A stretch of 57,697 nucleotides of DNA, counting the filler, from Catajapyx aquilonaris (lineage: Eukaryota), in NCBI GenBank assembly GCA_000934665.2. It is 2 parts of 2 records of this genome, joined end to end, with 100 filler letters (N's around TTAATTAATTAA, not from the genome) between each part and the next. Parts side by side here need not be neighbours in the genome. Positions count along the whole stretch, not along the records: positions 28,821 to 57,697 come from JYFJ02004889.1; 1 more part is not named here. One strand, written 5' to 3'. The translations under genes were made by a program, and so were the position numbers. The stretch's first letter is position 1. Every line of letters starts with the position of its first letter. This document shows positions 19,857-56,689 of the stretch, one piece after another. The notes under the pieces are model-generated. The model saw only the letters and a program-made list of their open reading frames with translations. It was not told the origin of the DNA and did no database searches.

Positions 19857-22800
19857 GATACCCTGTGACATTATTCCAGTAATTAGACTGAACCACGACT
19901 GAATTTCAGTATGTGCAGCCAAGAATAAAATTGGGGGGGAATGGGCCAAGTGAGACAACACTTGGCCCTGCAACAAGCTACCGTATTTACTCGGATATAA
20001 GACGCACACGCGTATAAGACGCACCCCGGTTTTGAGGCGAAAAATCGTGGAAAATCGGTTGTTGACGTATATATGACGCACCAACACGTGGCTGGCTCGT
20101 GACGACCTGCCGCGCACACCCTCCGGCAACATCAAGAGGGCCGCCCCGACAGTCATTGCGGGCTGGGTCAAATCTGCCTGGGACAACCTCAACCCGGAAA
20201 TCATCACTCGGTCATTCAAGAAGTGCTGCCTCAGTAATGAGCTGGACGGAACCGAGGATGACTTGCTGTGGCTCGACGACGACGCCGATGAGGAAGCGGC
20301 CGTGCAGGACGACGATGACGACTCGGATGGGGATGACGAGGATCCAGAGACGGCCAAGGAGAGCGACGATGACTGATTCGAATGTGCGATGTTTTTACAT
20401 TTTTCAATAAACGATTTTCATGATTTCTCACGGGTTTCGCCCTTTGTGCCCTGCCGTATAAGACGCACACGCGTATAAGACGCACCGTACTTTCTGAGCT
20501 ACAAAAATCGGAAAAAAAGTGCGTCTTATACTCGAGTAAATACGGTACTTCTGCGAGGGACCTTTGAATTTGGAGACGGAGGCGCTATTGAGCGTGCGGG
20601 ATCTGTTGTCACTCATATATTTAAAATGGCTACGTAATGCATCTTGTTACACTCACCAGTGAATTCTATGCATGTGATTTACCCACTGAGTGATTTTGGT
20701 CCAAATACGTTGGTGTCAACATTGCGGCCTTCCCTTGTAGTGCTATTCCAATCTTCTCCATAAGAAGGCAGTAAATAATTAAGTCCGGATGTCCAATATA
20801 TTGGACATGTGGTCTCACCAAACTAACTCTTCTTACCCTCCTAAATTTTGAAAATCTTTGGATTTTCTAATTCTGCTTGACCTATAGTGTTGTGCAAACA
20901 TCACCTCTGATGCTAATTTTCACATTAGCAGGGTCAAAATACAATCCAAAAGACCGAAAATTCCGAAATCACAACACCTGCGTCTGGTCGCGGGTGGCAG
21001 GTCGCCGGTCCCGGCTGGCCAGTCACAGGTCGTCATGACTGATATCAGTGATATGTAAATGATTGATTAAACTTGATTCATAAATTGTTACACAAAATCT
21101 ATTTCGAAGCTTGTGAGGTCATATTCTACTTTCTTGCGCCACCCTAGAGCGCGCTATAGTCCCGGCGACCGGGGACCTGTGACCTGTGACCGGCTGCTAT
21201 GTGTTGTGGCTTGGGAATATCACATTAAGCTTGTATTTTGAAGTGAAAATTAGCAACAGAGGTGATGTTTGCACAATACTATAGGCCAGCAGAATTAGAA
21301 GATCCAAAAATTTCCAAATTTAGGAGGGTAAGAAGAGTTAGTTTGGTTGTCAGGAGGTTAAGGATGCACTCAGTCTTCTCTAAGTAGTCATCATTGATAG
21401 GTTTAAGCCAGTTGCACTTATTACATACACAATTCAAAATAGGCTTGTAGTAAAATAAGATTTTCCACTTTAACCGTCCAGCAAGAAAACCTGAAAGTTG
21501 TACCTGTCGTCATTAAAATTTTTTTTATATCATGAATTCTCACTATAGTCAAGTTCTCATTATGTTTCTTAATCCTATTTCAGTTTGATGCCGATGTGCG
21601 AGCCCAGGTTGAAATAGATGAAGGGCAGCTACAGGAGCGCCACTTGGAACCCCCGTCTTCCACCTCTCCTCCTGTGAATGCTGCTCCAGATGAAGCCCCA
21701 AATGCCACCGATGCCTCTGACGTGGTGGGGAACAACAACACAAAAGGATTTGCCTCTGCAGAACTGATCCGCAACCTGGAGTCCCAAGTGGGCTCCTCTG
21801 AGGCTCCTCCACATCCATCCATTGCAGCACTTACACAAGCCTGTGGGGAAACCATTCTTAACCCAGGGTATCTACTGGGAGTCAGTGGAGGGGAACCATT
21901 TGTCAAGGCTCCAGGTTAGTTACAGGAAAAAAATGTTTTTTCCGAAGTTATATTTACAGAGACCATGGTTGGTTGTTTTGGGTAGAAATATAGGATAGGA
22001 CTGAAGTCAGAGCTAGTTAGAGCTTTGGGATGTGCGAAAAGGGACTATCCTTAGATGTTGGCAGCCTGATTTTGTGTCTTACTCATGTACTATACCCACA
22101 TGCTCCTTGGCCCCATCATTCATATATCAGTAGTTATTTACATTATTTTGCCATCACATTTTCTCTAACAATGATACAGACAGTTTCAGTAATAAGATTT
22201 TCATTGAACTCCATTCTGTACTGGCAGAGACCAGTTTTCCAGCTAGTGCATGATAATTTCACTCTTCAGACCTTCATGCCAGTGCAGCATGGAAAGTTTA
22301 CAGCCCACTTTTTTTTTTTCTTCTTCTTCTTCTTTTTTATATTTTTTACTTGGATACGTCTTTAAAATCGGATCAGGGGGCATGCAGGCAAAGGCGAATG
22401 TCACAGAAAAGCGTTACAGTCAGGGCCCTGCCAAGGGGCCTTGCCAGGGGCCCCATGGCAGGGCTAAAATCGGATCCGCATAGGGGGGGCATGCAGGCAA
22501 ACTCGAGCGTTACAGTCTGTTATTACCGAGTATGCTATAACTGACAGTATGTTACCTGCTCATTACGTCACACATATATACTTCCCCGCCCTTTGCACAT
22601 TACGTCACACATACTCCCCTCCCCTCTGCTCACAACATCACACACACTGCCCCTCCCTCTATGCACTGATGTCATCAAGGGATCAGGGGGCATGCAGGAA
22701 AACTTGAGCTTCACAGAAAAGCGGTACAGCAGGGCCCGGCCGGCCCCATGGCAGGGGCATTGGGGGGNCTGGGTAACGCTTTTCTGTAACGCTCGAGTTT

Positions 22801-23379
22801 GCCTGCATGCCCCCTGATCCGATTTTAAAGACATATCCACGCCTCCATGCATAGGTTGTGCCCGCAAAAGCTGTGGCTTGTGTCCCCGACACAACCTAAG
22901 GTGAGGTGATAGGGAGGGGATGTGCAATGTGCAGTGCATTGTTGTTTGCGAAGGTCATTTTGTGAACTCCCCCGGGTGGTTAGGCTATCAGAAATCCCAC
23001 CCAAGGTGAAGCGTGAGACAACCCCAAACTCTGCACAAGATGAAAGGGGGGAACCCGGGACCTTTCCATCTGTGGGCGCATACGTTACTGCCAGCGCCAC
23101 TCCGCCTCCCTGTTTACAGGCCACTTTCGAAGGCATTTTTCATTCTCATTTATCAGTTGTCCACTAAAAAAAGAAGAGAGAAAAAAGCCTATGCAGCTGC
23201 ACATGTGACACATCCACTCTTTCTCCTCTCTCCAATGAACGGAAAGAATCACTCATGCAACATAGTAGTGGCTTGTTGAATTAATTGCAGGCTATGGAAA
23301 TGTTTTCCCAGTCATGCCCGAAGTTGGCACTAGTTTGAAATAGGTCTGTCATAAGGGTTAATCACCCATGGCGTAATAA

Positions 23380-28820: not shown

Positions 28821-30522
28821 ATGATCACATGAGTGATGATGATACAATCAAGGTGTGCAATAAAATAATAAAAATAAAGATTAATGCATAGGAAAGTGTT
28901 TACGTGCAGTTTCAAATGTTAATTTCTTTCAGGCCTGCTTACGAATGTTCCTTGACCTGGACCTGATAAAGAGGTTCCACATCGACTACGAAGTCGTCTG
29001 TCGATGGCTCCTCAGTGTAAAGAAGAACTATCGCCACATCACCTACCACAACTGGAGGCATGCATTTAATGTGGCACAAATGATGTTTTCTATTATAACG
29101 GTAAGTTGCAGACAGTTTTTATTGCAATTTAGGAGCTAATTGAAACAATTCGTAAACAAATGCTATTCCTGTTTGTCGTACCTGTTTACGGCTCTGTCAT
29201 TGTGAAAAGATGGGATCAGTTCTTCATAGTACTTTTTATTGCCATTAATGTCCTGAAAAGTGTGATGAAGAATGGATCATTAGATTTGAAATTTATCCTC
29301 TAAAAACATGACCTGACTATTTTTGTGGACTCTTTCAGGCTACCCAATGGTGGAAGGTCCTTGGTGAGCTCGAATGTCTGGCTTTGTTGATAGCCTGCCT
29401 CTGCCATGACCTAGACCACAGAGGGACGAACAATTCCTTTCAGATCAAGTAAGGCATGATTTTATAATAATACCACATGTTAAAAGAGAGCTATCCTTAA
29501 ATAAATGCATAATTTTCTCCCTTTGTCTAAAGGGCATCATCACCATTAGCACAGTTGTACTCAACATCTACGATGGAGCACCACCACTTTGACCAGTGCC
29601 TCATGATCTTAAATAGTCAGGGAAACCAAATTTTGGCAGGGCTTTCCTCTGACGAATACTCCAGGGTCATCAAGGTTCTTGAAGAGGCAATCCTAGCTAC
29701 TGATCTCGCTCTGTACTTCAGGTGAGAAGAGCACTGATAAGCATGCAAATAATATTTATTGTACACACATTATTCTAAAGTCCCATACCGCCATTTTGAA
29801 ATCTTCATTAATTGTTGTGTTCTTCTGATTGATTAGAAATCGTGGTGTTTTCCTCCACCTGGTGTCCTCCGAGAGCTACAACTGGTGGCAGGAGGATCAT
29901 CGGAAGCTTCTCCGTGGGATGCTGATGACCGTGTGTGATCTGGCTGCCATTACCAAGCCTTGGGAGGTGGAGAAGAGGGTGGCAGAGCTTGTGGCTAGCG
30001 AGTTTTTCGAGCAAGGCGACATTGAACGCGAGGAGCTGAAAATCAAGCCCATTGTGAGTGAACCTTATGAAAAATTTTAGATCCAAAGCTGCTCCTGATT
30101 CAGCTTCTTTAGAGTATTGCAGAAAAATAACAGTAGGCTTATAAGGACTTCATTTCTTCTGCAGGATATGATGGACCGAGATAAGAAGGATCAGCTGCCT
30201 TCAATGCAGGTTGGATTCATCGATGCCATCTGCTTGCCCATCTATGAGGTGAGTGTGTTACAAGTCTTTAGGAAATGGTTATCTGTAGATTTCAACGAAT
30301 CGTGATGAATAATAGCTATTGAGAATTCTCTAATTTGTGGTTACCAATTCTGTCATGTATTTGACCATTCTTGCTGCCCATTTGTAACAAATTTCAATTA
30401 ATTTTCAGGCATTTGCGCAACTTTCTGACAAGCTCGACCCTCTCCTGGACGGTGTGAAAGAAAACAGATCCCACTGGGAGTCCATGTCCGAAGAGCACCC
30501 GAATTCTATCAAGGTCGGCTGA
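28821..30522 (+). CDS. Pde11: Dual cAMP/cGMP phosphodiesterase 11-like, catalytic-domain 3' exons (5' part missing at the gap)
   Basis: Exons 28821(partial)-28852, 28933-29100, 29339-29448, 29533-29721, 29837-30053, 30165-30248 and 30409-30522 join in frame. Motifs [54 protein letters not shown] and MQVGFID closely match my recollection of arthropod PDE11. Confidence 0.9.
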
Positions 30523-40957: not shown

Positions 40958-42589
40958 TCACTCAATCTTCATTCCTGTGTCGAGATTGAGGAGCTGTTTC
41001 ATGAGCTCGTACACAGAGAAGGAGACTGCGACCATTGGCACTGCTCGGAGGTAGTTGATGCTCATCCCACGGTACAGCCCTCGGGACACACCATTCTCGT
41101 TGTATATGAGACGTAAAGTTGAAAGCGTACCCATTCTGTGGGATTAGAATGTTAATGTCAGGTATATCCGACAAACCGCAATATGCAATTTGACGTTGAG
41201 TATTTCATTCGACACATTGCATGTTGCAGTAATGACCTTTTTTTTAGTACAAGAGTACACCATTTGGGAGATGTAGGAATAATCGGGTTAAATGGCTGTT
41301 AGCACGCGAATAGTGCGAGAAAATAGTTACCTTCTACATGTACCCGACACCATCCAATGAGAAGAGAAAAAAAAGAGAGAAAAGATGTAATTACAACACT
41401 TGCAGATGCAACAAAATGGTGCAGCGTAACCGGTTCAGATTGTCCCACTTTTTAATTTGAAACCCAGCAACGTCCTAAGCTTACCCGAACTTGTGCGTCT
41501 CGGGACTCATCATGGCCAGCTGCATTCTTCTTCTGACCACGTCTAGAGGATATGAGAAGCTCTGCGCAACCGCTCCTGCCACGCCGCCACACAAGAATTT
41601 GGCTGGGATTAGCAGCACCAGTCCTCCAGTATTCCTGGTGCATGGTCCACAAGTGGAGCGGGGGAAGTACTTCATACAGTAGAACTTGAGGGACTCGAAG
41701 CAGTAAAAGGACAGGCCAGCGTACGGAACCATCCCGCAAACGGTTGGGGCAAATCCGCGGTACAGTCCACGTATCCCACCTTCCGTCCTGAGGATTTCCG
41801 ACATGGTGTGTACTATCCCTGAGTACATATGTTCACCTACCACCTGTAAAGAGCGAGATTGCAGGTCGGACATGTCGTGGTTTACAGCAACTTACCTGGA
41901 ACGCAAGCCTGGCTCTGACTGTATCAAGCGGATAGGTGAGCGCAACGGCCGTTACTCCAGCGGACGACCCGGAGAGGAATTTGGCAATGTGAGACTTCGA
42001 TCCAAGGAGATCGCAATACATCTGCAAGTAATTATAACTTTTAATTAATAATTATTTAAATTATAATCCAATAGACTAGACATTGTCTCTTGAAGCCCGA
42101 CATATCCAGAGTCTACTGGATAATTTCCATGTAATTCAATGGACGGTAACCTTTTTGTACAGCTCGAAGGACGTGAATTGCGTCGCAGCGTATGGGAATA
42201 TCCTGACCATCTGCGCTCCATTCCCTTTGTACAGAGCGAAGTGCCGCTCCTTCTCGATGATGGCTTTTAGCCCGGAGAAGACGTTCAGGTGGTAGTAATG
42301 CTTGTTGTGCGCCTGCAGCAGGATCTTCACTCGGTCCAAAGGTGCAACCGTTGTCTTCGAGCACATCCCTGCTATGCCTGTAAACCACATGTTTACCATG
42401 TATTACCACATGTTTTTTGGCCTAGTTATTTTCTCTTGCATTGCCCGCAGCTGATGCAACATAGTTATGTTCCAAAATGTAATTATTCTCACCTCCGGCC
42501 AAGAAGGACTTGAGCACGACGGTGACCGTCTTGTCCTCAGCCTCAGCCGCAACAGGAGCACCTTTCCTCTGCTGCTCCTCCTGCTGCAT
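40958..42589 (-). CDS. SLC25A16: Mitochondrial carrier, Graves disease carrier/SLC25A16-like (CoA transporter family), 328 aa
   Basis: Exons 42589-42493, 42377-42151, 42021-41896, 41843-41485 and 41135-40958 (987 nt). Three carrier signatures PLDRVKILLQ, PLDTVRARLAFQ and PLDVVRRRMQL, plus KGNGAQMVRIFPY typical of SLC25A16. Confidence 0.92.
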
Positions 42590-43833: not shown

Positions 43834-44679
43834 TTACGAATGGGCAGTGTTTTGTGGCGGCTTGTGTTTAACAGCTTGATCGTACGTAGGTGGAGGACTA
43901 GTCCCTGTTATCGGTGGCACAGAAGGAGACTGTGGCGCACTCCAAGCTGGCGGTGGGTCTCTGGGACGCAACAAAGGACGTGCTTCTGAAGAGTGTTCTC
44001 CTGTCTCACCCTGCAACAATAGTCCATGCTGTAACTGGATTGTACTACCATGGTGGTGAGTATAATTTCAAACAAATTTTCAAACAAAACTGCAGAAAAG
44101 CTGAACAAACTTTGCCTTTTATATGCATACGTAGATGATTGATCAATCACATCCACTGTCGGCCATATAGAAGTTGTGGAGTGTGATTCATGAATCATCT
44201 TCATATCAATCAGTCAATCAACACACTGTCAGCAATCATGAAGTTCACTCACTTGGTTTATGGAGACATGTATGACATTGTGGTCGTGGTCTGACCCATG
44301 TATGGGCAGGTATTGCATCTGTTGTTGCCTGGCCTCCCAGCGTCTCATGCACTTGCAGCATATGAGGAGGATCAGCAGTAGTACAAGGAACAGGTTGACT
44401 GCCCATGATTGATGGTTAGAAACATTGTTAACTCAATGCAACAACTGGTAATGCCGACATTGCTTGTGCAAAAACAGTGTCGGCACCCACCTGTATTAAA
44501 GGCTTACTTCCAAGTATGAGTCCACTGCTGCTTGTCCACATGTTGGAATTGAAGCAACAGTCATCGTCACCTATTGCGCAGCAGACTGTGCCGCCCTGGC
44601 AACAATGCTGACCCACGTCGGTGCAAAAGGCAATTCCGCATTTGCTCCGATATAATGTGGCACTCATGCTGCCTTGCAT
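43834..44679 (-). CDS. Array gene A: Cys-rich N-terminus, single TM, PPTY tail (~164 aa)
   Basis: Exons 44679-44508, 44398-44253, 44010-43834: MQGSMSATLYRSKCGIAFCTDVGQHCCQGGTVCCAIGDDDCCFNSNMWTSSSGLILG-INLFLVLLLILLICCKCMRRW...VSINQ-GETGEH...SPPPTYDQAVKH. The start may be the second Met (44667). Confidence 0.8.
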
Positions 44680-45028
44680 TCGTCAAAAATAATTATGAGC
44701 GTAGGTATAGGTACAGTACACTTGAAGTCTACCTCTGAAGTGCAAATGGACCCTGTCTTATCTTATCATCTGGGGAATGTAGTCTAGGCAGGTAGAGGGC
44801 AGCAGATAGTTTGCAATTGATAAGTAGCGGATAAAAAAAAAGTCATACGCATCTTCGCAGCACTAATTGCATCATGTTAGGACATTACTGCCTATATTTT
44901 TCTGCCATAGTAAATGGTTGTGTGTTTTATTGTTGTTCAATATTACAAAGCACGCAGGATGCACTGATGGGTGCATGGTTTCATGAAAATGATTTTTTAT
45001 TAAAAAATATGTTGCAGCCCATTAGTTC

Positions 45029-45658
45029 TCAAATCATTCTCTCCTTTATTTTCATAGCGTCGTCGTAAGATGGCGGACATTCCTCCGCTGTATAAGATGG
45101 CGGACTTTCCTTCACTGCAATATCTGTCGATGAAGATGTCTCCTGATGATGAGACATCTCGTCACTTCCTCTCGTTACCCCCTCCGGTTCCTCCTCCGAT
45201 TCCTGGAGGCACTTGTCATTGTTAATTACTGCACGAATGTATGACCCATGCTCCTTTACCTGATGCGCAGGAACTTGATCGCTGATCACTATGACCACAC
45301 ATTCATTCTCATTTGGTGCTGAACGTATCAAAAGTACTTCTTGAGGTATGTCGTCGATTCTAGCAGCCGTGGCACAACCGCAGCAGATGACCCACAGGAG
45401 TCTGATTACCAGGATAGCCACTAGTAAGCCTGAAGAAATATCCAAAATTAATGACGTGCCAATAGCAACATTTCTGTATGTCGGAATCAAAAAAAATGCA
45501 GTTTGTCCACCAAGTAACGACACTGACAATTAACATCACTGATTAGCAGATGTTTCTTGCTTACATATTTTTTTTAAAATAACTGTGTGAGTTCCACATT
45601 TCTGTGAAGTAGAAAACTTCTTACCTACTGGAGGGCCTGCTGCGTAATAATAACTCAT
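45029..45658 (-). CDS. Array gene B: short N-terminus, single TM, two PPSY motifs (~125 aa)
   Basis: Exons 45658-45625, 45429-45260, 45202-45029: MSYYYAAGPPV-GLLVAILVIRLLWVICCGC...DQVPAHQ-ESEEE...ESPPSYTAEECPPSYDDAMK. Confidence 0.75.
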
Positions 45659-46862
45659 GTTGTTTGGTCGTCCTCTGCACAGGCTGCTTTGTCAACAATA
45701 CCAAATGTCAGGTGTCAGATTTGGAAGCTGAAAATTCGACAGGCTTGACACCTGTTACAAGCGTGCAATGTTTGTACGATTAAGGAGAAAATATGGATTT
45801 ACAGCAGTCCCAGTACTTATTGGATTAAAATGAAATTTGACACCCCATTGTCAGCAGGTCGCTGACTTCAGATCTAGTGTCAAAAATAAGAAATTCAAAA
45901 TGGCGGACTCATGAGAAAAGTTACATAATCATCACCCAGTGCAGTGCAGTGGGAGAAATAGTAAACATCCTGGTAAAATTTGTAATTGCATCATATCCTG
46001 CCTGGATGGGTTAGATCTTTCCCACACATTATATTGAGCAGTTCTCTTGTTCGTATCCTTGTAACTTTGGTGTAAAAAAAATGATATGCGTGTTCTGTAA
46101 GGTACACACATATGACGCAATTTGGGGAATTGGTGCAAGCACGAGCAAGAATTTATTTCGCCTCCTGATTACAATCAAGACAAAGAAGTTATTGAAGGAT
46201 TTTGCGGATAAAATCTAAGATGAAATTTACTTACGCAAAAGTAGTTGCATGTAACGTGACAATTCCTTCTTGTTCAAATAATCAGTAAACTTCTGATTGC
46301 AAATGAAAGAACACGCTCAGAAGTACATTATAATGGGGGTAAAACAATCATCATCACCTTTCTCTATTGAAGCCAAGAGACAATCAAATATCTTGGACCG
46401 CACTGGCACACTGGCTCTTGTTCTACTAATACACCGTGAGATACTAGTCGTAGGAGCTAATATAAACATTTCAGCGTGTTGCTGTACGAACCAGATGGAA
46501 GACTCCGCATTCCTTTTTTAACGATATGACACTGTTGCCAAATTGGTATTTCGACCATGTTTTTAGATATTTCTCACACTGTGTAATCGGTTAAAAAAGT
46601 AAGTGGAAAAATGAAAAATAGGGGAAGGTAATAAATAAGCTTATGTTCCATTTTGAGAATGACCTCAAGTTGCCTTGGTTTGTGGTTCTTGTGGGTATGT
46701 TATCGTAACACTGACTTGGTGATTCCCCGCCAACTTCCTTTACAACATGGAGAGGAAGGAGCAGTGGTTAGCAGTGGTCAATGGAAGACAAGGATCCGCT
46801 GAGAGGGGTGGAGATTCTAAATATGAAAAATTGCAAACTCGCAAAAAAATGCTACACCGAAA

Positions 46863-46960
46863 TCACTTGTAGTTTTTGACGTCTTCCTCGTAACAAGCCG
46901 GATTTTCCTCCACAGCAATCTTTGTCGGCAGTTTGTTGAAGTATCTCATGACTTCCGCTC
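46863..46960 (-). pseudogene. Orphan exon-3 remnant of the array family
   Basis: Reads ...KIAVEENPACYEEDVKNYK*, homologous to KITVEENPPSYEEAT of genes D/F. I found no matching exons 1-2. Confidence 0.5.
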
Positions 46961-47239
46961 GATTTTATGAGCGTAAAATTTCACTCGTATTTTTGGAACA
47001 TTTTGCGAGTTGTGCGAAGATTATTATTAGCGTACAGAGCGAACGTATGATCTATTCATATGACCTTCTAATGTGCAGATACTTTATTCCAAGGTAAATA
47101 TGGAAAACGGTAGACAGTGCGACAATGTATATAGGTTCATATATATACACATTTTATTAACCATCTACAGGTCTACACTAATGCCAGCAATCCTGAATAT
47201 TGTTTTTATCAGCAAAATCATATTGACAAGTAGATTAAT

Positions 47240-47824
47240 TTAAGGCTTCTTTTGAATACGGAGAGATTCCTCGTACGAAGGCGGATGCTCTTCTGGAGGA
47301 TGTGCTGGACAGCAGTCCCTTGCACTATTCACATTGGCTCCCTGAAGAGTTGTGAATATTTTGCAATAGTTAGTGAACATTTTGTGCTGCCTAAAGAATA
47401 ATTATGCTTGTTCAGTTATCAAAATTATGCTAGTTCAACTTACCAGGGATGCAGGAACTTCATGGCTGACCACGCTGACCATACTGTCTGGTGGTATCAG
47501 CAATACCCGTTGGCGGTCGCGGCCAAGGCGGTAGCATATCCACCAGATGAGGAACCCGAGTTTAAGTCCTCCGACAATCGCAGCTATGCCTGTGGAACAA
47601 TCCAAAAATTAATGAAGCGGTAACAGTCTTCTGAATATTTTGCTTCAAAATGCACTTTGTCCACCGAGTATTGAAATAATTAGCAATGGCACAAAGAACT
47701 TAATAACATGTTCTAGAGTTTGAGATATTAATATCGCTTCAACAATATGTAGTATGACAGGCTCTGAAGAATTAATATTTCATACAATCTCTTTACCTAT
47801 AATAGAGTACCCCTGGTAACCCAT
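47240..47824 (-). CDS. Array gene C: short N-terminus, single TM, PPSY (~91 aa)
   Basis: Exons 47824-47797, 47589-47444, 47341-47240: MGYQGYSII-GIAAIVGGLKLGFLIWWICYRL...HEVPASL-GANVNSARDCCPAHPPEEHPPSYEESLRIQKKP. Confidence 0.72.
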
Positions 47825-48182
47825 AATGCAAAGTTTTCTTGAAGAAATACACTGAATGGCCAGTGCCGATTTAAAGAAGTAAATTCAAGCACTGCAGATC
47901 TGACGACTTGGTGTCTTCAGTTGCTTTTGTGCAACGCTTGGAGGAGGAAGCAAAGATGCAGTATTATCAGCTTCATAGTACCTTATCTTGAATTAGTGTG
48001 GTTTTTCTAATCTATTTCTTCTTGGTTGGCATCCTGGTAACAATATGAGGGTTGCCAAATGATGAAAAGTCCCCGAGTTTTATTTACATAATTGCGCAAT
48101 ATTGTCTTCTGTGTTTGGAGTGTAATGAGATAAAAAGCTATTGAGTATATTTTTAATTCATTTTAAGGGGTAGCTCTTCCAG

Positions 48183-48790
48183 TCAGGTCTTGTTGCTTCT
48201 GGTGGCTTCCTCGTACGAAGGAGGATTTTCCTCGACTGTAATCTGTGTCCGGGAAGGAATTTGTTGCAACTGGTAATGAGACATCTCGTAATTTCCATTC
48301 ACTGAGGCGTCCATTTCCTACAAGCAATTTCCATCATAATTTATTAGTGAACGCAGATTAATATACGTTGTGTTAACGGTAGGAATACAAAGCGAATACA
48401 TGATTCTCCTCACCTGGTGTGTAGAAACTTGACCGTTGACCACTCTGACCACACATTCATTCTGTCTCGGTTCCGACCCTATCAGCAGTGTCCGTTTAGG
48501 TGTGCGATTGCAGCAAGTTCTGATGCATCTCCAGATCATGAATTGCAGGAGGTTGAATAGCAGGAAAACTAGTATGGTTATGGCTGCATAATAATACAAA
48601 ATTAATAGTGTCAATAGCGTAACGAATATTTCGTATGTCGGAATGAAAATGCAGTTTGTCCATCAAGTGATGACATTGATGGCATGAAGATCTTCAAAAC
48701 GATTTTGATTTTGAAAAGGAACAATATTGCATAAGCAAGAGCATCAGCGGAATTCTTACCTATCGGGCCGAATCCGTTGTAACCACTCAT
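48183..48790 (-). CDS. Array gene D: short N-terminus, single TM, PPSY (~111 aa)
   Basis: Exons 48790-48760, 48583-48414, 48317-48183: MSGYNGFGPI-AITILVFLLFNLLQFMIWRCIRTCCNR...QVSTHQ-EMDAS...EENPPSYEEATRSNKT. An in-frame upstream ATG at 48928 is an alternative start. Confidence 0.78.
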
Positions 48791-49011
48791 GGTGCTAGCT
48801 CGTCCTCGTCTGCACAAGATGCTTCTTGAACAGTGCTGGACATTAATGGTGTAGCGCCACGAGCCGGTGTTTGCAGAAGAGAGAATCGAAGTGATCAAGT
48901 GCGAGCAAGTGCGAGTATAATAAGTCATAGACCCCTGATAGCGTAACTGGCTGCTCACTCTTTCAAAACACCCTGGAGATATCTTTAGTGTGGTTTTTAC
49001 TAATCTATATA

Positions 49012-49340
49012 CAGGGTGTTTCAACTTTTTTGTCCGAACAGTTATCGGAAAATTGCACGTAGCTGCTACTTTGTAAGCAGTGACTTGCAAACGGTGATTT
49101 TTCGGAGGAACGGGGAATATCCCCTGCGAATCGTAGGTTGAAGTGGCATACGTGCTGCCCGCTGAAAATTGAAGGTCAAGCCTGGAAAAAAGAGGGTCAC
49201 ATATGCCATGGGATGTGTGACCCTCTTTTTCACCATTTCCCATTCCTCCGACAAACCACCGGTTGCAAGTCACTGCTACAATGTAGCAGCTACGTGAAAT
49301 TTTACGATAACTGTTCGGACAAAAAAGTTGAAACACCCTG
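49012..49340. mobile_element. Tc1/mariner-type MITE upstream of gene D
   Basis: ~57-bp terminal repeats CAGGGTGTTTCAACTTTTTTGTCCGAACAGTTATC... flanked by TA. It is absent at the paralogous sites ~52020 and ~48010. Confidence 0.88.
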
Positions 49341-49575
49341 TATATATATTTTTTCCATTTGGAGACATCTGAGTAATATCATGGGGTTTTACACGTAATG
49401 GAAAAGGTACTGGGTGAGTTTCGTGTTCATAATTACGTAATATTGGCTGGCCTGTTGGCAATGGTAATTATTTTTGGTGTGTTATTTCAATGTGCAAAAA
49501 AAAAGCACTAGTGCACTTCAGAAGTCTAATTAATTTGATGTCAGTGAATGACATAAACCTCTTCCTGCATTATTC

Positions 49576-49650
49576 AATATAATAATATATAATATAATAA
49601 TATAATATAATATAATATAATAATATGATAATATATAATATTATAATATA
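49576..49650. repeat. (ATATA)n microsatellite
   Basis: Imperfect pentanucleotide tandem repeat. Confidence 0.85.
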
Positions 49651-49998
49651 AGCATATGAGGTACTGATGTATAGTATGGAACGTTGAATAATTACCGGGA
49701 AAAGGCTTATTTTTATAAAAGTGTTGAAACCATATGAAACGTATTACTCAATTCCGAACATTTAAAATGATTATATTCCTAAGCATTTGATGCGGAAAAA
49801 GGGAAAAAATTATAATTAAGTTTTAAAAAAATCAAAATATATAGGGAGAAAATTAAACAAAATCAGATTTTATTCACTTAAAAAATGACAGGTGCATCAC
49901 ATACGTGGAAAATAGTTTGGTCTACGGCTTTTATTTTCACCTCTTCATTCCACATTTCATTGGTGAAAAGTTACTCCATTTATAAGACGTTATTCGTA

Positions 49999-50684
49999 TT
50001 ATTGCTCATCTACGAGTAATTGCATTGATGTAGATGGACTTGGGTGAGTTGTTTCCTCATATGAAAATCGGTCCTCTGATGGAAACCTGTAAGATGATCG
50101 GACATGTCCCAACTCACGAGAATCGTTGCCAATCCTTCCCACAGGACACTGCGGTGAGGAAAATTATTAGTTAATACCATCTTACAATATGAAGGCTTAT
50201 AGATGTACAGTATTTTAATTAAAATAATGTCAGACACAGTATACGGAAGGTACAAAATTATCTCGATAATGCACAAACAATTTCTGCACTTCTTATACCT
50301 GATGTGCAGCAGCCTGGTCGGTACTTCGTGTGGTTCGCACTCGTAAAGGTATCGGCATGTTTCCTCGAAGTTCTCCGCCTTCATAACTCCTCCTGCACTT
50401 GTAGATGCCCCATACTACTATCAGTACAGTGAATGCTAGCCCTATGTAAAAGAGAACCAAATTACTAACCCCAGGTGTCCATTACGTGTATTGTTGCAAA
50501 ACTCACATCCTATGGCGGCGTATATTCCGTATTCATATGGCGTAGGTCTGATAATGGGTTCGCTGAGACACCGTTGACTAGTGGAGCAGTACCACTCGGT
50601 GCCCAAACAGCATGTTTCCGAATCCTTGCATCGCAACTGACCACCACACGATTTTGACCCGACCAAGCTCCAACTTCCGGACAT
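49999..50684 (-). CDS. Array gene E: 6-Cys N-terminus, single TM, PY motif degenerate (RFSY) (~156 aa)
   Basis: Exons 50684-50507, 50441-50299, 50148-49999: MSGSWSLVGSKSCGGQLRCKDSETCCLGTEWYCSTSQRCL...YAAIG-WLAFTVLIVVWGIYKCRR...AAAHQ-CPVG...PSEDRFSYEETTHP. Confidence 0.75.
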
Positions 50685-51308
50685 GATAGTCTGGTGCTGT
50701 ATACGGACGTCTGTGCTGTCTGTGCTTACTGTGACTATGATTTTGTGACTTCCTTTACATCAGACGTGTCTTAAGTGGGCGGTACCAAATGACATTACCA
50801 TATCAAAGAGGGCACTAATTGGCCGGTGGAACGACCAGAGTCACATTTGACTGATTTTGAGCCATGATGGTTTGAACCTTGAAAATTGCACCATTACGGG
50901 ATAATTACAGTATTTTCAATAATTACACTAAGGGACTCTAATGTCTTACTGTAACAACTGACATGATTATTATCAGAAATGGTTTTATTCAATATTGACC
51001 AAATGTGACTCTGATCATTCTGGGTATGGGTTGCATAGTTCAATTTCGGGGCACGCAATAAAAACCAGAAATCAGCAACTTTTATGTTTGTATATTGTAC
51101 AGATAATTTTAATGTGTAGAGAACATTGAGTGAGGCTGGAGTATTGTTGTGTTTACTCGTATAGGTCTATTATTGTATGACAGTTAGCAACAGTTAGCAG
51201 CAGTAGTAGCAACAGATTGATGTAATATTGCCTGCTAATTACTATACTTCCGGATGTAGATGCTTTCCGACCTTTGAAACTTTGTAACATTGCGCATTGT
51301 TGCTCCAA

Positions 51309-51810
51309 TCACGTCATGTTGCTTCTGGTGGCTTCCTCGTACGAAGGAGGATTTTCCTCCACTGTAATCTTCGTCTGTGAAAGGATTTGTTGCAACTGGC
51401 AATGAATCTCGTCACTTCCGCTCACTGAGATTTCCGTTTCCTGCAAGTATTGGTAAATAGTGAACATACTGTATAGATTTGTATACATTGTGCTACCGAA
51501 TACATTCGCCTTACTTGTTGTGCAGACACTTCATCACTGACCACTATCACAACATTGTCTCTCGGTGTCGACCCTATCAGCAGTGGCTGTTGAGGTGTGC
51601 GGTTGCAGCCAGTTCTGATGCATCTCCAGCAGATGACACACATGAGTTTGATTAGCAGGACAATTACGGCTAATGCTGTAGAATAATCCAAAATTAATAG
51701 TGTCATATTTTGATTTTGGAATGATCAACTCCAATAAGCACGAGCTTCACATTTTGTGCACCTTCAGCGAAATCCTTACCTATCAGGGAGAATCCGTTGT
51801 AACCACTCAT
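51309..51810 (-). CDS. Array gene F: short N-terminus, single TM, PPSY (~107 aa), close paralogue of D
   Basis: Exons 51810-51780, 51675-51515, 51440-51309: MSGYNGFSLI-ALAVIVLLIKLMCVICWRCIRTGCNR...EVSAQQ-ETEIS...EENPPSYEEATRSNMT. Confidence 0.78.
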
Positions 51811-52531
51811 GGTGCTAGTATAGGTAGTCCTCTGTACAGGCTACTATTGGAGCAATACCAATGGTCACTATACTGTCGATTTGAAGCAGTAAATTCTGGG
51901 TCCTCGGATGGACGGACTTGACAGCTTCTGTTGCAAAGTGTGCAATGGTTGTTCGATTCAGGAGAAAATATGGATTTGTAGCAGCTTGCACAGTGCGATA
52001 TCTTAGTGTGGTTTTTCTGATCTATTTCTTCTTTAGCGGCATCCGGGTAATATCACGGGATTTTCCACATAATGGGAAAGGCACTGGGTGATTTGCATGC
52101 ACATAATTACGTAATACTGACTTTCTTGTTTGGGGTAGAATTTTTGCTGTATTTTTAATTACTAAATGTGCAAAAAGCACTATAGTGCACTTCAGAAGAC
52201 CAATAGTGATATGCCAGTGAATGACATATTCTAAGCTCTTCATGCAATGTTCAATATATGAGCATATGAGGTAACGTACATGACGGAACATGGAATAATT
52301 AGCAGAAAAAACACCGTGGAAAAAAGCGGCATGATGGATTAAAATAATAATAGTCTGCCCATTAATATGAATATTACCAAACGATGCGTCACGCGTCGCG
52401 TCGGTAAATGGAAAATAGGCTACTAACTTCTGCTTAGTGCTTTAAATTTTTTTTTATATTTTCACCTCATTACATTTCATTGGTGGAAAGTTACTACGTT
52501 TATGTAATCCGTAATTTGCATTATTGCAAAT

Positions 52532-53337
52532 TTATTTAATTGCTGTAGGTGGACTTAGGTATTGTCCCTTGGTAGTCTCTTCACATGAAGGTGGCTTGTC
52601 TTGAGATGGAAACCTGGGAGATGACTGGAAGTGTTCCAATTGAGAATAGTTGCCAGTTTCTTCAGTTATAATAATTGCAGGAACCTGCAGTGTAGAAATT
52701 ATTGTCGATTATTCAACACCATTTTAATCGGCTGTTATATATACCCTATAGTGTACAGGCTGATGTTTAAGACGCGATGAAAACCTATGGCTGTTTCAAA
52801 AGCTAGCTAGATTCAACTCGGTAGCATTATCAAAAAGTAGGCTACATTGGGAAGGCAGAGCTTACAGTATATGGCTTTGATAATGTTTAAATGATATTAT
52901 ATTCTCCAACCAAGAAGGGACCATCATATCCTGTACTTCTTACCTGATGTGCCACAACCTGAAGGCAATTAGGGTTGGTACTGTGTGTAGTTTGCACTTG
53001 CAGCACATTTCCTCGACGTTCTCCGCAGGCAGGACTCCTCCTGCATTTGCATATGATGCATGCGACAATCAGTATAATAAATGCTGCACCTGTGGAAGAG
53101 AACCAAGTTACTAACCAGTCAGCCGGACTGGTGTGTACGTACTGTACGTGTAATGTTGCACTCCTTACATCCTATGGCAACGTATGTTGGGTCATATTGC
53201 TGAGTAGGTCCACTAGTGCACCGTCCACTCGTTGTGCAGTATGAACCATTGGTACCCAGACAGCATGTCTCCCAATTACTGCATCGAAATTGACCACCAC
53301 ACTGCTTAGACCTGACAAAGACCAAACCTCCGGACAT
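52532..53337 (-). CDS. Array gene G: 6-Cys N-terminus, single TM, PY motif mutated (PPSC) (~155 aa), close paralogue of E
   Basis: Exons 53337-53169, 53089-52944, 52684-52532: MSGGLVFVRSKQCGGQFRCSNWETCCLGTNGSYCTTSGRCT...YVAIG-CAAFIILIVACIICKCRR...VVAHQ-VPAII...QDKPPSCEETTK. Confidence 0.75.
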
Positions 53338-53812
53338 CTCTGGTGCTGTGCAGCGATTGTTAAGTTCAAAAAGTAGATGTGCCGTTCTTGCACTTTTTAT
53401 CATAAGACTGGTTTTGTGATTTCCCGGTAACTTCCTAGAAATGTAATGCCATTGCGTTCATGCGCAGGGCTTGCGTTTTTTCCCACAGAAAAATAAGTCG
53501 GAAATGTTACCGTCAACATACCCCACCTCATCTTAACTTGAGGTTTGGTTGCGATTTTATCATGCGAGACTTCCTTAGGTTGGTTCATTTGTGGGTAAGT
53601 GAGGGGTACCACTGTGCATCAATGGTCTTAGCTTTGGAAATAAATGGAAATCTTTTTCTATATGTACCTACTATTTGCTTGTAAACTTGAAGGCACGAAA
53701 TGCACGATCACAATCTCAGTTTGATCAAAATGATTCAGTTGATTTCAGATATGCTGTTCAGATTCATCCACCTATTTATTTCGTGAAAAATCAATTTTAA
53801 CAATGTTTCACA

Positions 53813-54380
53813 TCACATTTTGGCAGCTTCACTGTACCCAGGTGGATCTTCCGTTGTCATTTGAGGTAAGTTGATGTGCTGGGGCATTGTAGCGTAAGTT
53901 ATTATGTCCTAGAAATAGACATATATTTGGCGTAATTGATACAGATATTTGCATACGCGTATATGGAAAACACACATTTTCACGAACACGAAATACTGGT
54001 GTTCTTACGTACCTATACAGTAAATATGGCTTACGTAAATACTTGAACCCTTCCCACAACTCTGACTTGATTACTCTTGTACTACTATCACTCTCTTTCT
54101 GGAGAGGCATCTTTTGCAGACCGCAACTAACATCAGGATAGTGAAGATTATTGCAACTGTAAATATTCAGTAACATAACACAATGTCATTGTTGTGGAAG
54201 TGCAAGGCAGGATATTTTGGGCAATTTTTTGATGCGACATCGTAACAACTTACCTACACTGCTCACAGTTATTGAGGTGCTGTGTGACCCAGAATCTGTG
54301 GGGTCCGTAGGTTCATCATCAGGAATTTGAGTGGAATTTGGCAAAATGGTGCTCCGTAATAAGCTGTAGTTTTGAAACAT
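53813..54380 (-). pseudogene. Array gene H: Ser/Thr/Pro N-terminus and TM, premature stop in exon 2, intact-looking PPGY exon downstream
   Basis: Exon 1 54380-54254; exon 2 from 54156 reads VAIIFTILMLVAVCKRCLSRKRVIVVQE* (TAA at 54073-54071); exon 3 53908-53813 reads DIITYATMPQHINLPQMTTEDPPGYSEAAKM*. Paralogue of J. Confidence 0.6.
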
Positions 54381-55022
54381 GCTGGTATAGTAGTTGACAA
54401 TGCCAACTGTACTGTACGTACTGTGTGAATGGGCTTATCCTTCTTTGGAATATTTGTGTAGTGTTTGCAATGAATCTTATCTCTTTGCCAATCATTTGCA
54501 ATATAGTTATCTCCTGCATATTGGAAGTCATAAATTACTCTGGACAATACCAGATCCGGTCTATATGGAAAGATTTATTATTGTAAGCCAAATGATAAGT
54601 TCGTAGCTACTCTACAATCTCTACCCATTGTAGTCATACCCTCTTTCGCAGGAATACTCTGCTAAGCTTAAATTCTACAAAACTTCCAATTGAGAGGAGA
54701 TCATGTTTTCAGATTTGCATCACTTTATGTCGCTTTATGTACAGCGGTTTTGTCTTTAGGGAGAGGAATGACATCGATTTATTATTGTGCCAAAATCATA
54801 AGGATAGTACGAGTTTTATACACATAATTGTTTCAGAACAATAGAAATTTTTGTACCACAAAATGTGTGAGCGTTTAATTTTCAGAATACTGTACGAGAA
54901 GTTACAACCTCATATATAGTCTATATATGAGGTTGCCTGAAGAGAAGAACAATATTGTGATTCAAATTACCAGAATATCTCTTATGTTGCTATTATCGAC
55001 TGGTACGAATTCATCTTAATAT

Positions 55023-55570
55023 TTAAACAATGTTTTTGCACTGCTCTTGAGGATGGTAGCTATCCTTAATAGATTCTTCGTACGAAGGCGGATTTGCTTC
55101 TGGAGATATCTCTGGGGATGAAGCTCCCTGCTCCAACAATGCCAAGGCATCCTTTCCATCTGTCGGGACAGTAGCTTCCTACAATTTGTAATTATTGTTA
55201 GTGACATTTTCTTACACTGCGCAATAATTTTTTGAGGACGTTTCATTCTTTAGATTTCGGAATGTGATTAGTGCCAAAAATCATATTTTGTATTATAGAA
55301 ATGAGTGTGTAATGTCCTTGCCTGATGATCAGCATTTTGAGGTCGAACATCCACGTTGATCATATTTGCCTGGATTGCCGCGTGTTCTGATGCCGAAATC
55401 ATAAAGACTGGTCGACGTTCTCTGCAGAATGATCTGAGACATTTCCAAAGGAGACTTACAAGTAGCACTATCCCTAATCCTGACACTGCGAGAGAATTAA
55501 AAGTTTCAGAAATGTCAGCAGCAACAATATTGAACGCACTATACTTACAATATAAAACTTTCTTGTCCAT
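55023..55570 (-). CDS. Array gene I: short N-terminus, single TM, PPSY (~113 aa), GC-AG second intron
   Basis: Exons 55570-55549, 55485-55322, 55178-55023: MDKKVLY-LSGLGIVLLVSLLWKCLRSFCRERR...NADHQ-EATVP...EANPPSYEESIK. The donor is CAG|GCAAGG at the position where paralogues have CAG|GT. Confidence 0.65.
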
Positions 55571-56099
55571 CTTAGAGGTGCACTGGGGAGTTCAAGAATG
55601 TTAACAACTTTGAGAGCATGTGCACAGCTTATACCTTTGGACACTGTTGCAAACGGAATTGAAGTAAGGGAAAGAAATGGTTCCGATACGATAATTCCAC
55701 GCTTTATCTCGACTTGCGGTTTGGTTGTGCTCTTTTATCAAGACGGCTTCCCTTTTAATTCGCACGTTTCATGTGAGGGGTACTGTACCACTGATGTGTA
55801 TTAATGCTCAACTTTTGGCAATAAAATTTATTATATTTCTATTCTTCCACGTGTAAACTTGACACGAAATGCACGATAGTATCAATAAGGTCAAAATTGA
55901 ATTAATATTTTCGTTGCCTTCATATATTCTGTTCAAATAACTAAACGCATATTATCCGTTACACATGCTTCACTATTTCTTGAGGTAATTTACATGCTTG
56001 GAGGGCCTTTATTACACTCTGTGCAAGTGTTTTTAAGAAGTAATACATTTTCCACTTTATCTAATAATTCGAATATATTATTTAGTGAAAAGCGTTACA

Positions 56100-56689
56100 T
56101 CAAGTGTCGATTTTGACAGTTTCAGTATACGGAGGTGGATCTTCTGTTGTCGGTTGTGGCAGTGATTCCTGGGGTTGTGCCTGGGGCAGTATATGGAGAT
56201 CAGTAGCCATGTTTGTTACTGCCTGGAAATAGACACCAAATTGTAAGCACATATTCGCAAAACACCATTACGAGTTACATTGCTCCACGATACATTTTTT
56301 GAATTTTTTTTGACAACCTGTGGTTCTCTTACCTGCATTTGAGTTAGATTGACTTGAACCATTTCCAAAACTCTCCTAGGGTTCCTCTCTGTTGCCGGTG
56401 CCTCCTCTGTGGTCTCTGTCTGTTTGAAGCAGCAGATACGGGCGCACCGGCAGCACCATACGAATATCAGCGCAGAGAAGAATAATGAAACTGGAAGAAT
56501 TCAGTAGTATAACACAATAATTCCATTCTTGTGGAAATGCAAGGCAGACTTTGCACAATATTGTAGCTTACCTAGACTGCCCCCATACAATGCGGTGTGT
56601 GACCCAGTAGGGTCAGTAGGTCCATCATATGGAAATGCCGTGGTGTTTGGCGAATTGGTGCTCCATAATAAGCTGTTGTTTTGCAACAT
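56100..56689 (-). CDS. Array gene J: Ser/Thr/Pro N-terminus with N-glycosylation sequons, single TM, PPPY (~132 aa)
   Basis: Exons 56689-56572, 56490-56333, 56222-56100: MLQNNSLLWSTNSPNTTAFPYDGPTDPTGSHTALYGGSL-VSLFFSALIFVWCCRCARICCFK...LTQMQ-AVTNM...TEDPPPYTETVKIDT. Confidence 0.78.

Follow-up and report, generated by a model that had tools for sequence, protein, structure and literature searches.

Small membrane adaptors with a PPxY motif, such as WBP1L, CYYR1, Ndfip and Commissureless (Comm), determine which receptors undergo ubiquitination and degradation. They form a small set that is difficult to detect in sequence searches, and beyond model organisms little is understood about them. Here we describe a tandem array of genes that might encode such proteins, located in a window of 57,697 nucleotides (nt) from Catajapyx aquilonaris (GenBank assembly GCA_000934665.2), which consists of two parts joined end to end and whose positions 28,821 to 57,697 come from JYFJ02004889.1. 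The closest described systems are the following. Members of the STMC6/Shisa-like group are short proteins that cross the membrane once and combine a C*C*CC*CC ectodomain with PY motifs (PMC5578492, PMC6991692, PMC11399591). WBP1L is a palmitoylated adaptor with the same ectodomain pattern, which binds WWP1, WWP2 and ITCH via [L/P]PxY (PMC6991692), and CYYR1 binds WWP1 in a PPxY-dependent manner (PMC11399591). The insect protein Comm is short and has no signal sequence; binding of Nedd4-family ligases via L/PPxY motifs is reported for it, and its extended LPSY-DEAL motif is essential (PMC5578492). Likewise, the PPSY motif of adenovirus protein VI recruits Nedd4 ligases (PMC2841620).

On the minus strand of the window, between positions 43834 and 56689, we rebuilt ten three-exon units (A to J) and one orphan tail exon, whose best explanation is a birth-and-death tandem family of genes for predicted very small single-pass membrane proteins. 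Exon borders were placed by hand on the minus-strand reading and then checked by script. The ten same-strand units and the orphan exon reported in a preliminary description of this DNA were all recovered at their positions. As it had also proposed, the units have three coding exons; 10/10 give open frames from ATG to stop, and the products are of 91–164 amino acids (aa), in agreement with the anticipated size of about 90–165 aa. Exon lengths are the same modulo three in the ten models (1 for exon 1, 2 for exon 2 and 0 for exon 3), with the predicted intron phases (1 then 0) found throughout. GT donors occur in 19 of 20 introns, mostly as GTAAG or GTGAG, and the 20 acceptors are all AG after pyrimidine-rich tracts. 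The ending HQ, said to be frequent in exon 2, appears in half of the models (5/10), with a final Q in 8/10.

The shared phases would let any exon 1 join any exon 2 in frame, and the gaps between units are merely 350–1580 base pairs (bp). Both features would suit an array with fewer genes than units, in which first and last exons are alternative cassettes and, for instance, read-through transcripts join an exon 1 to exons 2 and 3 of another unit. Every unit, however, has its own ATG, its own stop and a downstream poly(A)-type hexamer (AATAAA or ATTAAA, no more than 375 nt past the stop in 10/10 genes, with a background of 1.7 per kb), and there is a conserved upstream block at B, C, D and F, as separate promoters would give; we consider the cassette arrangement very unlikely.

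The units are strongly divergent paralogues, as first noticed, and this divergence is accompanied by signs of coding constraint. Amino acid identity among members is 21–65%, the nearest pairs being D/F (65%), E/G (56%) and H/J (50%), and synonymous divergence (dS) goes from 0.25 to above 1. Despite this large synonymous divergence, three in-phase exons are kept in nine or ten units. Identity between D and F is 78–90% in exons, 64–69% in introns, which also contain large gaps, and 37–45% in flanks; between E and G it is 72–75%, 58–73% and 41–50%, respectively, with intron 1 (73%) at the level of the exons. Among aligned paralogues, the length differences of exons are multiples of three in 8/8 non-zero comparisons, and those of the matching introns in 2/8. 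Ratios of nonsynonymous to synonymous divergence (dN/dS), calculated for five pairs by the Nei-Gojobori method with codon bootstrap, are 0.53–0.81 overall, and are below 1 by bootstrap for E/G (0.58, 95% interval 0.35–0.97), B/D (0.57, 0.33–0.93) and B/F (0.53, 0.28–0.98). Because no pair or exon has a dN/dS clearly above 1, the conflict-driven evolution, immune or reproductive, that had been put forward for the array finds no support in these data. A tree of exons 2 and 3 supports only E+G and H+J and leaves the rest unresolved, so that neither the order of the duplications nor that of the exon 1 changes can be deduced from it. Together, the in-phase frames, the higher conservation of exons than of introns and flanks, the multiple-of-three exon indels, the dN/dS values and the conserved motif columns (see below) point to a real protein-coding family, which would evolve under relaxed purifying selection with turnover of its members.

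Several of these features would also be expected from a mostly decaying array, made of recent duplicates of which few or none are functional and whose frames are open only because they are short and young. The dN/dS range, with two of five pairs not significantly below 1, the nonsense codon in H, the orphan tail exon, the loss of the motif in E and G, the foldback insertion upstream of D and the lack of any protein of this kind in the searched libraries could all be accommodated in this way. Yet dS is 0.5 to above 1 for most pairs, and 9/10 units still have their three exons in phase, with splice sites and both a start and a stop codon. Exons also outconserve introns and flanks, with indels that are all multiples of three, and conservation within the tail is much higher at the PPxY columns than elsewhere. 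We thus regard general decay as quite improbable, and retain the reading of a constrained family with turnover.

One hydrophobic stretch of about 19 residues, which we interpret as a membrane helix, is present in 10/10 models. It is followed by Cys and basic residues, as in CCKC, CKCRR, RCIRTCC or CCRCARICC, and exon 2 has a single invariant column, a Cys located after the helix; the arrangement of helix, juxtamembrane Cys and basic residues attributed to this exon was thus borne out. The 15 residues that follow the helix carry a net charge of +2 to +5 in 8/10 models, compared with +1 or less before the helix. No signal peptide was recognised in any model by hydropathy reading, made with no dedicated predictor; in the Cys-rich members, the first Cys is preceded by 12–13 mostly polar residues, and the best 8-residue N-terminal hydropathy mean is 0.8–1.9. 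Because of the charge bias and of this absence of a signal peptide, the proteins are predicted to be oriented with the N-terminus out and the C-terminus in, without a cleaved signal. Conservation between paralogues begins exactly at the ATG for E/G and 8 nt upstream of the ATG for D/F. Since the spacing between a shared upstream word and the ATG is not the same in E and G (a difference of 4 nt), and conservation starts at the ATG, the shared upstream stretch of these two genes appears to be non-coding and to contain no hidden upstream coding exon.

The segments predicted to lie outside are of three kinds. The preliminary description compared the family with proteins that have a Cys-rich ectodomain; such a domain is present in A, E and G (3/10) and absent from the other seven models. 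Only 7–11 residues precede the helix in B, C, D, F and I, while the outer segment of H and J consists of about 40 residues, without Cys and with two NxS/T sites. In D and F, the short exon 1 (MSG...Y-x-G...I) is similar to both ends of the Cys-rich exon 1 found in E and G, which hints at an origin of the short forms by internal deletion. An AlphaFold2 model of the exon 1 domain of E, built with a two-sequence alignment, reached a mean pLDDT of 54.9, which is insufficient for searching folds. On the other side of the helix, a hydrophobic VVxVV-type stretch follows the juxtamembrane Cys in B, C, D and F, and is weaker in the others. In exon 2 of these four genes (e.g. 48455-48414, 51556-51515 and 45301-45260), a conserved run of alternating Val or Ile, with Ser or Asn and an acidic residue after it (VVxVV-S-D-E type), lies some 20 residues past the helix; it may resemble a hydrophobic core of the SUMO-interaction type.

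The tail motif is clearly enriched in the array. Reading 43834-56689 in its three minus-strand frames yields nine occurrences of the pattern PP.Y, compared to 1.09 ± 1.06 (maximum 5) in 300 shuffles, and the remaining 43.8 kb of the minus strand has one. Although a PPxY tail had been claimed for each member, it is found in 8/10 models, with RFSY in E and PPSC in G occupying its place. The motif can be extended to [ED]-x-PPxY-[EDST]-[EDQ]-[AST]-x-[KR], situated 6–20 residues from the C-terminus, with examples such as PPSY-EEA, PPSY-DDA, PPTY-DQA and PPGY-SEA. In the alignment of the tails, the two Pro and the Tyr are each conserved in at least 90%, versus a mean column identity of 33%. E (50002-50148) and G (52535-52684) lost PPxY by differing changes and kept a shared RFPS-[EQ]-D stretch just upstream. 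Their loss of the motif suggests either a relaxed need for PPxY in the Cys-rich subfamily or a different partner.

Conservation of the Tyr raises the question of which domain would read it. The proteins could be phosphotyrosine adaptors, similar to the palmitoylated transmembrane adaptors of the TRAP kind (with a tiny ectodomain, a helix and a CxxC-type acylation site), whose motif Tyr is phosphorylated and read by SH2 domains, WW binding being absent or switched off by phosphorylation. Such a role would be in line with the 5/10 members that have only 7–11 residues outside the membrane and a Cys beside the helix, as well as with the residues that follow the Tyr, which are E/D and then E/D/Q in 8/10 tails (8/9 of those keeping the Tyr, which is Cys in G), the exceptions being H (SE) and J (TE). 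Acidic residues after Tyr favour Src-family kinases and SH2 domains. The PRR7 cluster is also among the leads of the Atlas feature search described below (score 0.83). Nevertheless, the two Pro are as conserved as the Tyr, and they are needed by a WW ligand but not by an SH2 ligand; the replacement of the Tyr in G and of the prolines in E fits neither possibility better. Overall, a function in phosphotyrosine signalling seems to us unlikely.

Recognition of the motif by WW domains is, in our opinion, somewhat the more credible outcome: the array would encode membrane-anchored, probably palmitoylated PPxY proteins that dock Nedd4-family WW domains, with the helix and the outer segment giving specificity. 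Exons 2 and 3 would provide a chassis common to all members, composed of the helix, the invariant Cys with its basic residues, the short hydrophobic, strand-prone stretch, an acidic linker and the near-C-terminal PPxY. Exon 1 would supply the outer segment: a module of six to eight Cys with a Shisa-like pattern in A, E and G, a Cys-free, glycosylatable segment in H and J, and next to nothing in B, C, D, F and I. The juxtamembrane Cys beside basic residues would be a likely palmitoylation site, and, at the plasma membrane or at endosomes, the cytoplasmic PPxY would dock the WW domains of HECT ligases of the Nedd4 family. In this manner, the proteins could act as ligase activators, adaptors or sorting factors, like WBP1L, CYYR1 and Commissureless, and might route cargo. 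Not all members would act so, given the loss of the canonical motif in E and in G and the probable inactivation of H. This adaptor reading takes its arguments from motif and architecture only, by analogy with those proteins.

Certain observations weigh against this reading, starting with the motif itself. E and G are without a canonical PPxY, and the motif is short, so it may arise by chance or serve other readers. Two gene models are irregular. The intron 2 donor of gene I is GCAAGG, the sole GC donor of the 20. Gene H (53813..54380) has its exon 1 at 54380-54254, an ancestral exon 2 at 54156-54035, followed by a strong in-phase GTAAGC donor, and a tail exon with PPGY at 53908-53813; the ancestral exon 2 contains an in-frame TAA at 54073-54071, and an intact frame (98 aa) requires the use of a weak GTACAA donor at 54083. 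Because of this TAA and of the weak donor otherwise needed, H is probably a disabled gene, or one whose product ends after about 69 aa. Likewise, dN/dS is not separable from 1 for D/F (0.81, 0.44–1.58) and H/J (0.68, 0.37–1.32), and the pN/pS ratio of exon 2 is 0.98 for D/F.

The searches for relatives belong with these points. No Pfam family passes the cut-off on 27 exon or open reading frame (ORF) pieces, scanned at E up to 10 and including the near-full-length B ORF of 132 aa; in particular, none of the families proposed for comparison (WBP-1, CYYR1, Shisa and DUF2650) reaches it on these pieces, which offer a lower sensitivity for A, E and G than spliced full-length proteins. Two profiles stayed below their cut-offs: DUF2650 on exon 1 of A (E 0.065, 13.4 bits versus 22.9) and the Comm profile (PF15957) on the B tail (E 0.016, 15.9 bits versus 27). 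The Comm profile was also the only match for the 132-aa B ORF (E 0.077), and gave nothing on the other nine tails. The Cys spacing of E and G is reminiscent of half a granulin module; the Pfam scan returned no Granulin match. Protein libraries of 1.8 and 5.8 billion sequences returned no significant relative: a profile of exon 1 of E and G gave 0 matches at E up to 0.001 in an exhaustive HMMER search of 1.84 billion representatives, and a word-indexed protein search with the B ORF spanning exon 2, intron and exon 3 gave 12 candidates, none of them scored. An Atlas feature search with the B ORF produced leads with scores of 0.88 or lower (TMEM52, PRR7, LDLRAD4/PMEPA1, MLANA and Myc target 1), all of them other tiny single-pass proteins, and the same search with exon 1 of A produced nothing.

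With the profile of the tails, compared to longer proteins at E up to 10, we obtained four matches among 8000 scored candidates, none significant. One of them (P0121; E 0.05, not significant) is a protein of 106 aa from an 874-bp assembly contig, with N-glycosylation sites, one helix and two PPSY-EEA motifs. Its layout is that of H and J, and it is the only external candidate relative, of unproven homology. The others were a 302-aa protein (P0122; E 5.7) with two PPSY motifs (PPSY-EEV and PPSY-DDT) and no Pfam family, a LITAF-like protein and an EGF-like single-pass protein. In PDB sequences, the tail profile only matched adenovirus pre-protein VI, at PPSY-EEA (E 0.03–0.13, motif level only). 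A metagenome scan with a four-tail alignment yielded 36 pattern matches and one locus confirmed by tblastn (L001), which we discarded as a chance match: this 294-aa open frame lies beside an ABC-ATPase-like frame on a 22-kb contig and, by sequence, looks like a bacterial RpiR-type regulator.

As a control, a 273-aa ORF of the menin gene of the window retrieved 764 proteins at E up to 1e-10, in which insects and other arthropods rank first and the best are 60–74% identical. Since the libraries contain no close relative of this animal, with a best menin match of 74%, blank searches have a limited meaning for a fast-evolving family, and they give no basis for calling the expansion lineage-specific, as had been suggested. 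A narrow literature search found no published description of such an array.

All the genes lie on the minus strand, and their exons are given in the order of transcription. Among the Cys-rich members, gene A (43834..44679, 164 aa) has exons 44679-44508, 44398-44253 and 44010-43834 in an open frame with GT-AG introns; its product shows an ectodomain with the pattern C-x4-C-x6-CC-x5-CC-x6-CC, the helix, CCKC and a PPTY tail. Gene E (49999..50684, 156 aa; exons 50684-50507, 50441-50299 and 50148-49999) has the ectodomain pattern C-x5-C-x5-CC-x6-C-x5-C before the helix and a tail with RFSY in place of PPxY. Its nearest paralogue is gene G (52532..53337, 155 aa; exons 53337-53169, 53089-52944 and 52684-52532), with the PPSC tail. 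Gene J (56100..56689, 132 aa; exons 56689-56572, 56490-56333 and 56222-56100) combines a Cys-free ectodomain with two NxS/T sites, the helix, CCRCARICC and a PPPY tail.

The members with a short exon 1 comprise gene B (45029..45658, 125 aa; exons 45658-45625, 45429-45260 and 45202-45029), with an N-terminus of 11 residues, the helix, CCGC and two PPSY motifs; gene C (47240..47824, 91 aa; exons 47824-47797, 47589-47444 and 47341-47240), with an N-terminus of 9 residues, the helix and a PPSY tail; and gene D (48183..48790, 111 aa; exons 48790-48760, 48583-48414 and 48317-48183), with an N-terminus of 10 residues, the helix, RCIRTCC and a PPSY tail. D is the nearest paralogue of gene F (51309..51810, 107 aa; exons 51810-51780, 51675-51515 and 51440-51309). 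Gene I (55023..55570, 113 aa) is formed by exons 55570-55549, 55485-55322, which has the GC donor, and 55178-55023, with a PPSY tail; its intron 1 would be in frame if retained. The orphan tail exon (about 46863..46964) is a relic with 76–78% identity to the tails of D and F and with no matching exon 1 or exon 2, and its motif has decayed to NPACY, then EE, plus a stop codon.

The conserved block upstream of F (51936..52204, minus strand) is a candidate shared promoter or 5' untranslated exon. Segments of this block are found again upstream of B (45759-45807, 88%), C (47993-48064, 78%) and D (49358-49530, 71%). Within the block, upstream of D and F, there is a palindromic octamer, TTACGTAA, contained in ATTACGTAAT, at 49433-49440 and 52107-52114. 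It has four matches in the whole window, versus 0.5 expected by shuffling, and resembles a PAR/bZIP-type binding site, which makes it a candidate shared regulatory element. Between gene E and the ATG of D lies a foldback element (49002-49350) with 74-nt arms that are 95% complementary and inner 43-nt arms that are 88% complementary, which looks like an insertion of the miniature inverted-repeat transposable element type. It separates D from the conserved upstream block, which F, B and C keep near their start codons, and gives rise to the region's longest stop-to-stop ORF (255 aa, with no Pfam match).

The array neighbours a mitochondrial carrier, identified by Pfam at 41481-41891 (minus strand). 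The other genes of the window identified by Pfam are upstream of the array and encode a zf-DNL protein, menin, a WD40 protein, which we take to be RACK1-like, and a Metallophos phosphatase, presumably PP2A-like. A run of N at 22545-22954 breaks a repeated low-complexity sequence between menin exons and appears as X in ORF translations; N amount to 89 in the whole window.

The array offers a compact natural series, with one chassis, three kinds of outer segment, two independent motif losses, one probably disabled copy and one relic exon. Such a series would permit direct tests of which part of an adaptor gives cargo specificity. It also illustrates that proteins of 90–160 aa, encoded in three short exons, can escape ORF-based scans. 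A further and doubtful possibility is that the array constitutes a modular sorting toolkit, in which an ancestral Shisa-like gene lost its signal peptide and its descendants deleted or replaced the luminal module, keeping the palmitoyl-anchored PPxY chassis. If so, it would be a Commissureless-like set in which varied luminal and helix specificities are combined with the same recruitment of Nedd4 ligases, routing different receptors to degradation, and E and G would be motif-less decoys.

Compared with the Shisa-like/STMC6 proteins (Shisa, WBP1, WBP1L/OPAL1, VOPP1, CYYR1, TMEM92 and DUF2650), the array proteins are likewise small and single-pass, with a Cys at the cytoplasmic end of the helix and an [L/P]PxY tail: the helix is present in 10/10 models, one juxtamembrane Cys is invariant and [LP]PxY is found in 8/10. 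As for the six-Cys pattern C*C*CC*CC, A fits it with an extra CC and E and G show the variant C*C*CC*C*C, whereas the other seven have no ectodomain Cys. They differ as well in that none has a signal peptide, seven of ten are without any Cys-rich module, the tails carry one motif each (two in B) instead of several, the proteins are shorter (91–164 aa) and the genes form a ten-gene tandem, and in that no profile of the group (Shisa, WBP-1, CYYR1 or DUF2650) reaches its cut-off.

With Commissureless (PF15957; functional analogue PRRG4), the array proteins share the short length, the single helix and the lack of a signal sequence, and their PPxY-[EDST]-[EDQ]-[AST] motif resembles the extended L/PPxY of Comm, in which acidic residues and Ala or an aliphatic residue come next; the genome of the window also looks arthropod. 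The Comm profile, however, stays below cut-off and touches the B tail only, so the likeness is one of motif; besides, the array motif starts with PP and not LP, and A, E and G have luminal Cys, whereas Comm has none. The luminal parts of Comm are much longer than those of the array proteins. Because seven members depart from the Cys pattern and the signal peptide is missing in all, we would assign the array neither to STMC6 nor to Comm, descent from either being unproven. The PPSY motifs of adenovirus protein VI and of LITAF-type proteins, which are validated or annotated Nedd4 WW ligands, are nearly identical to that of the array, in that PPSY stands after an acidic residue and before EEA, an aliphatic residue and Lys or Arg, but the proteins are unrelated, and this likeness is a convergence of a short linear motif and not homology. 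In all, the array is for now an uncharacterised gene-family expansion, rather than a new kind of system.

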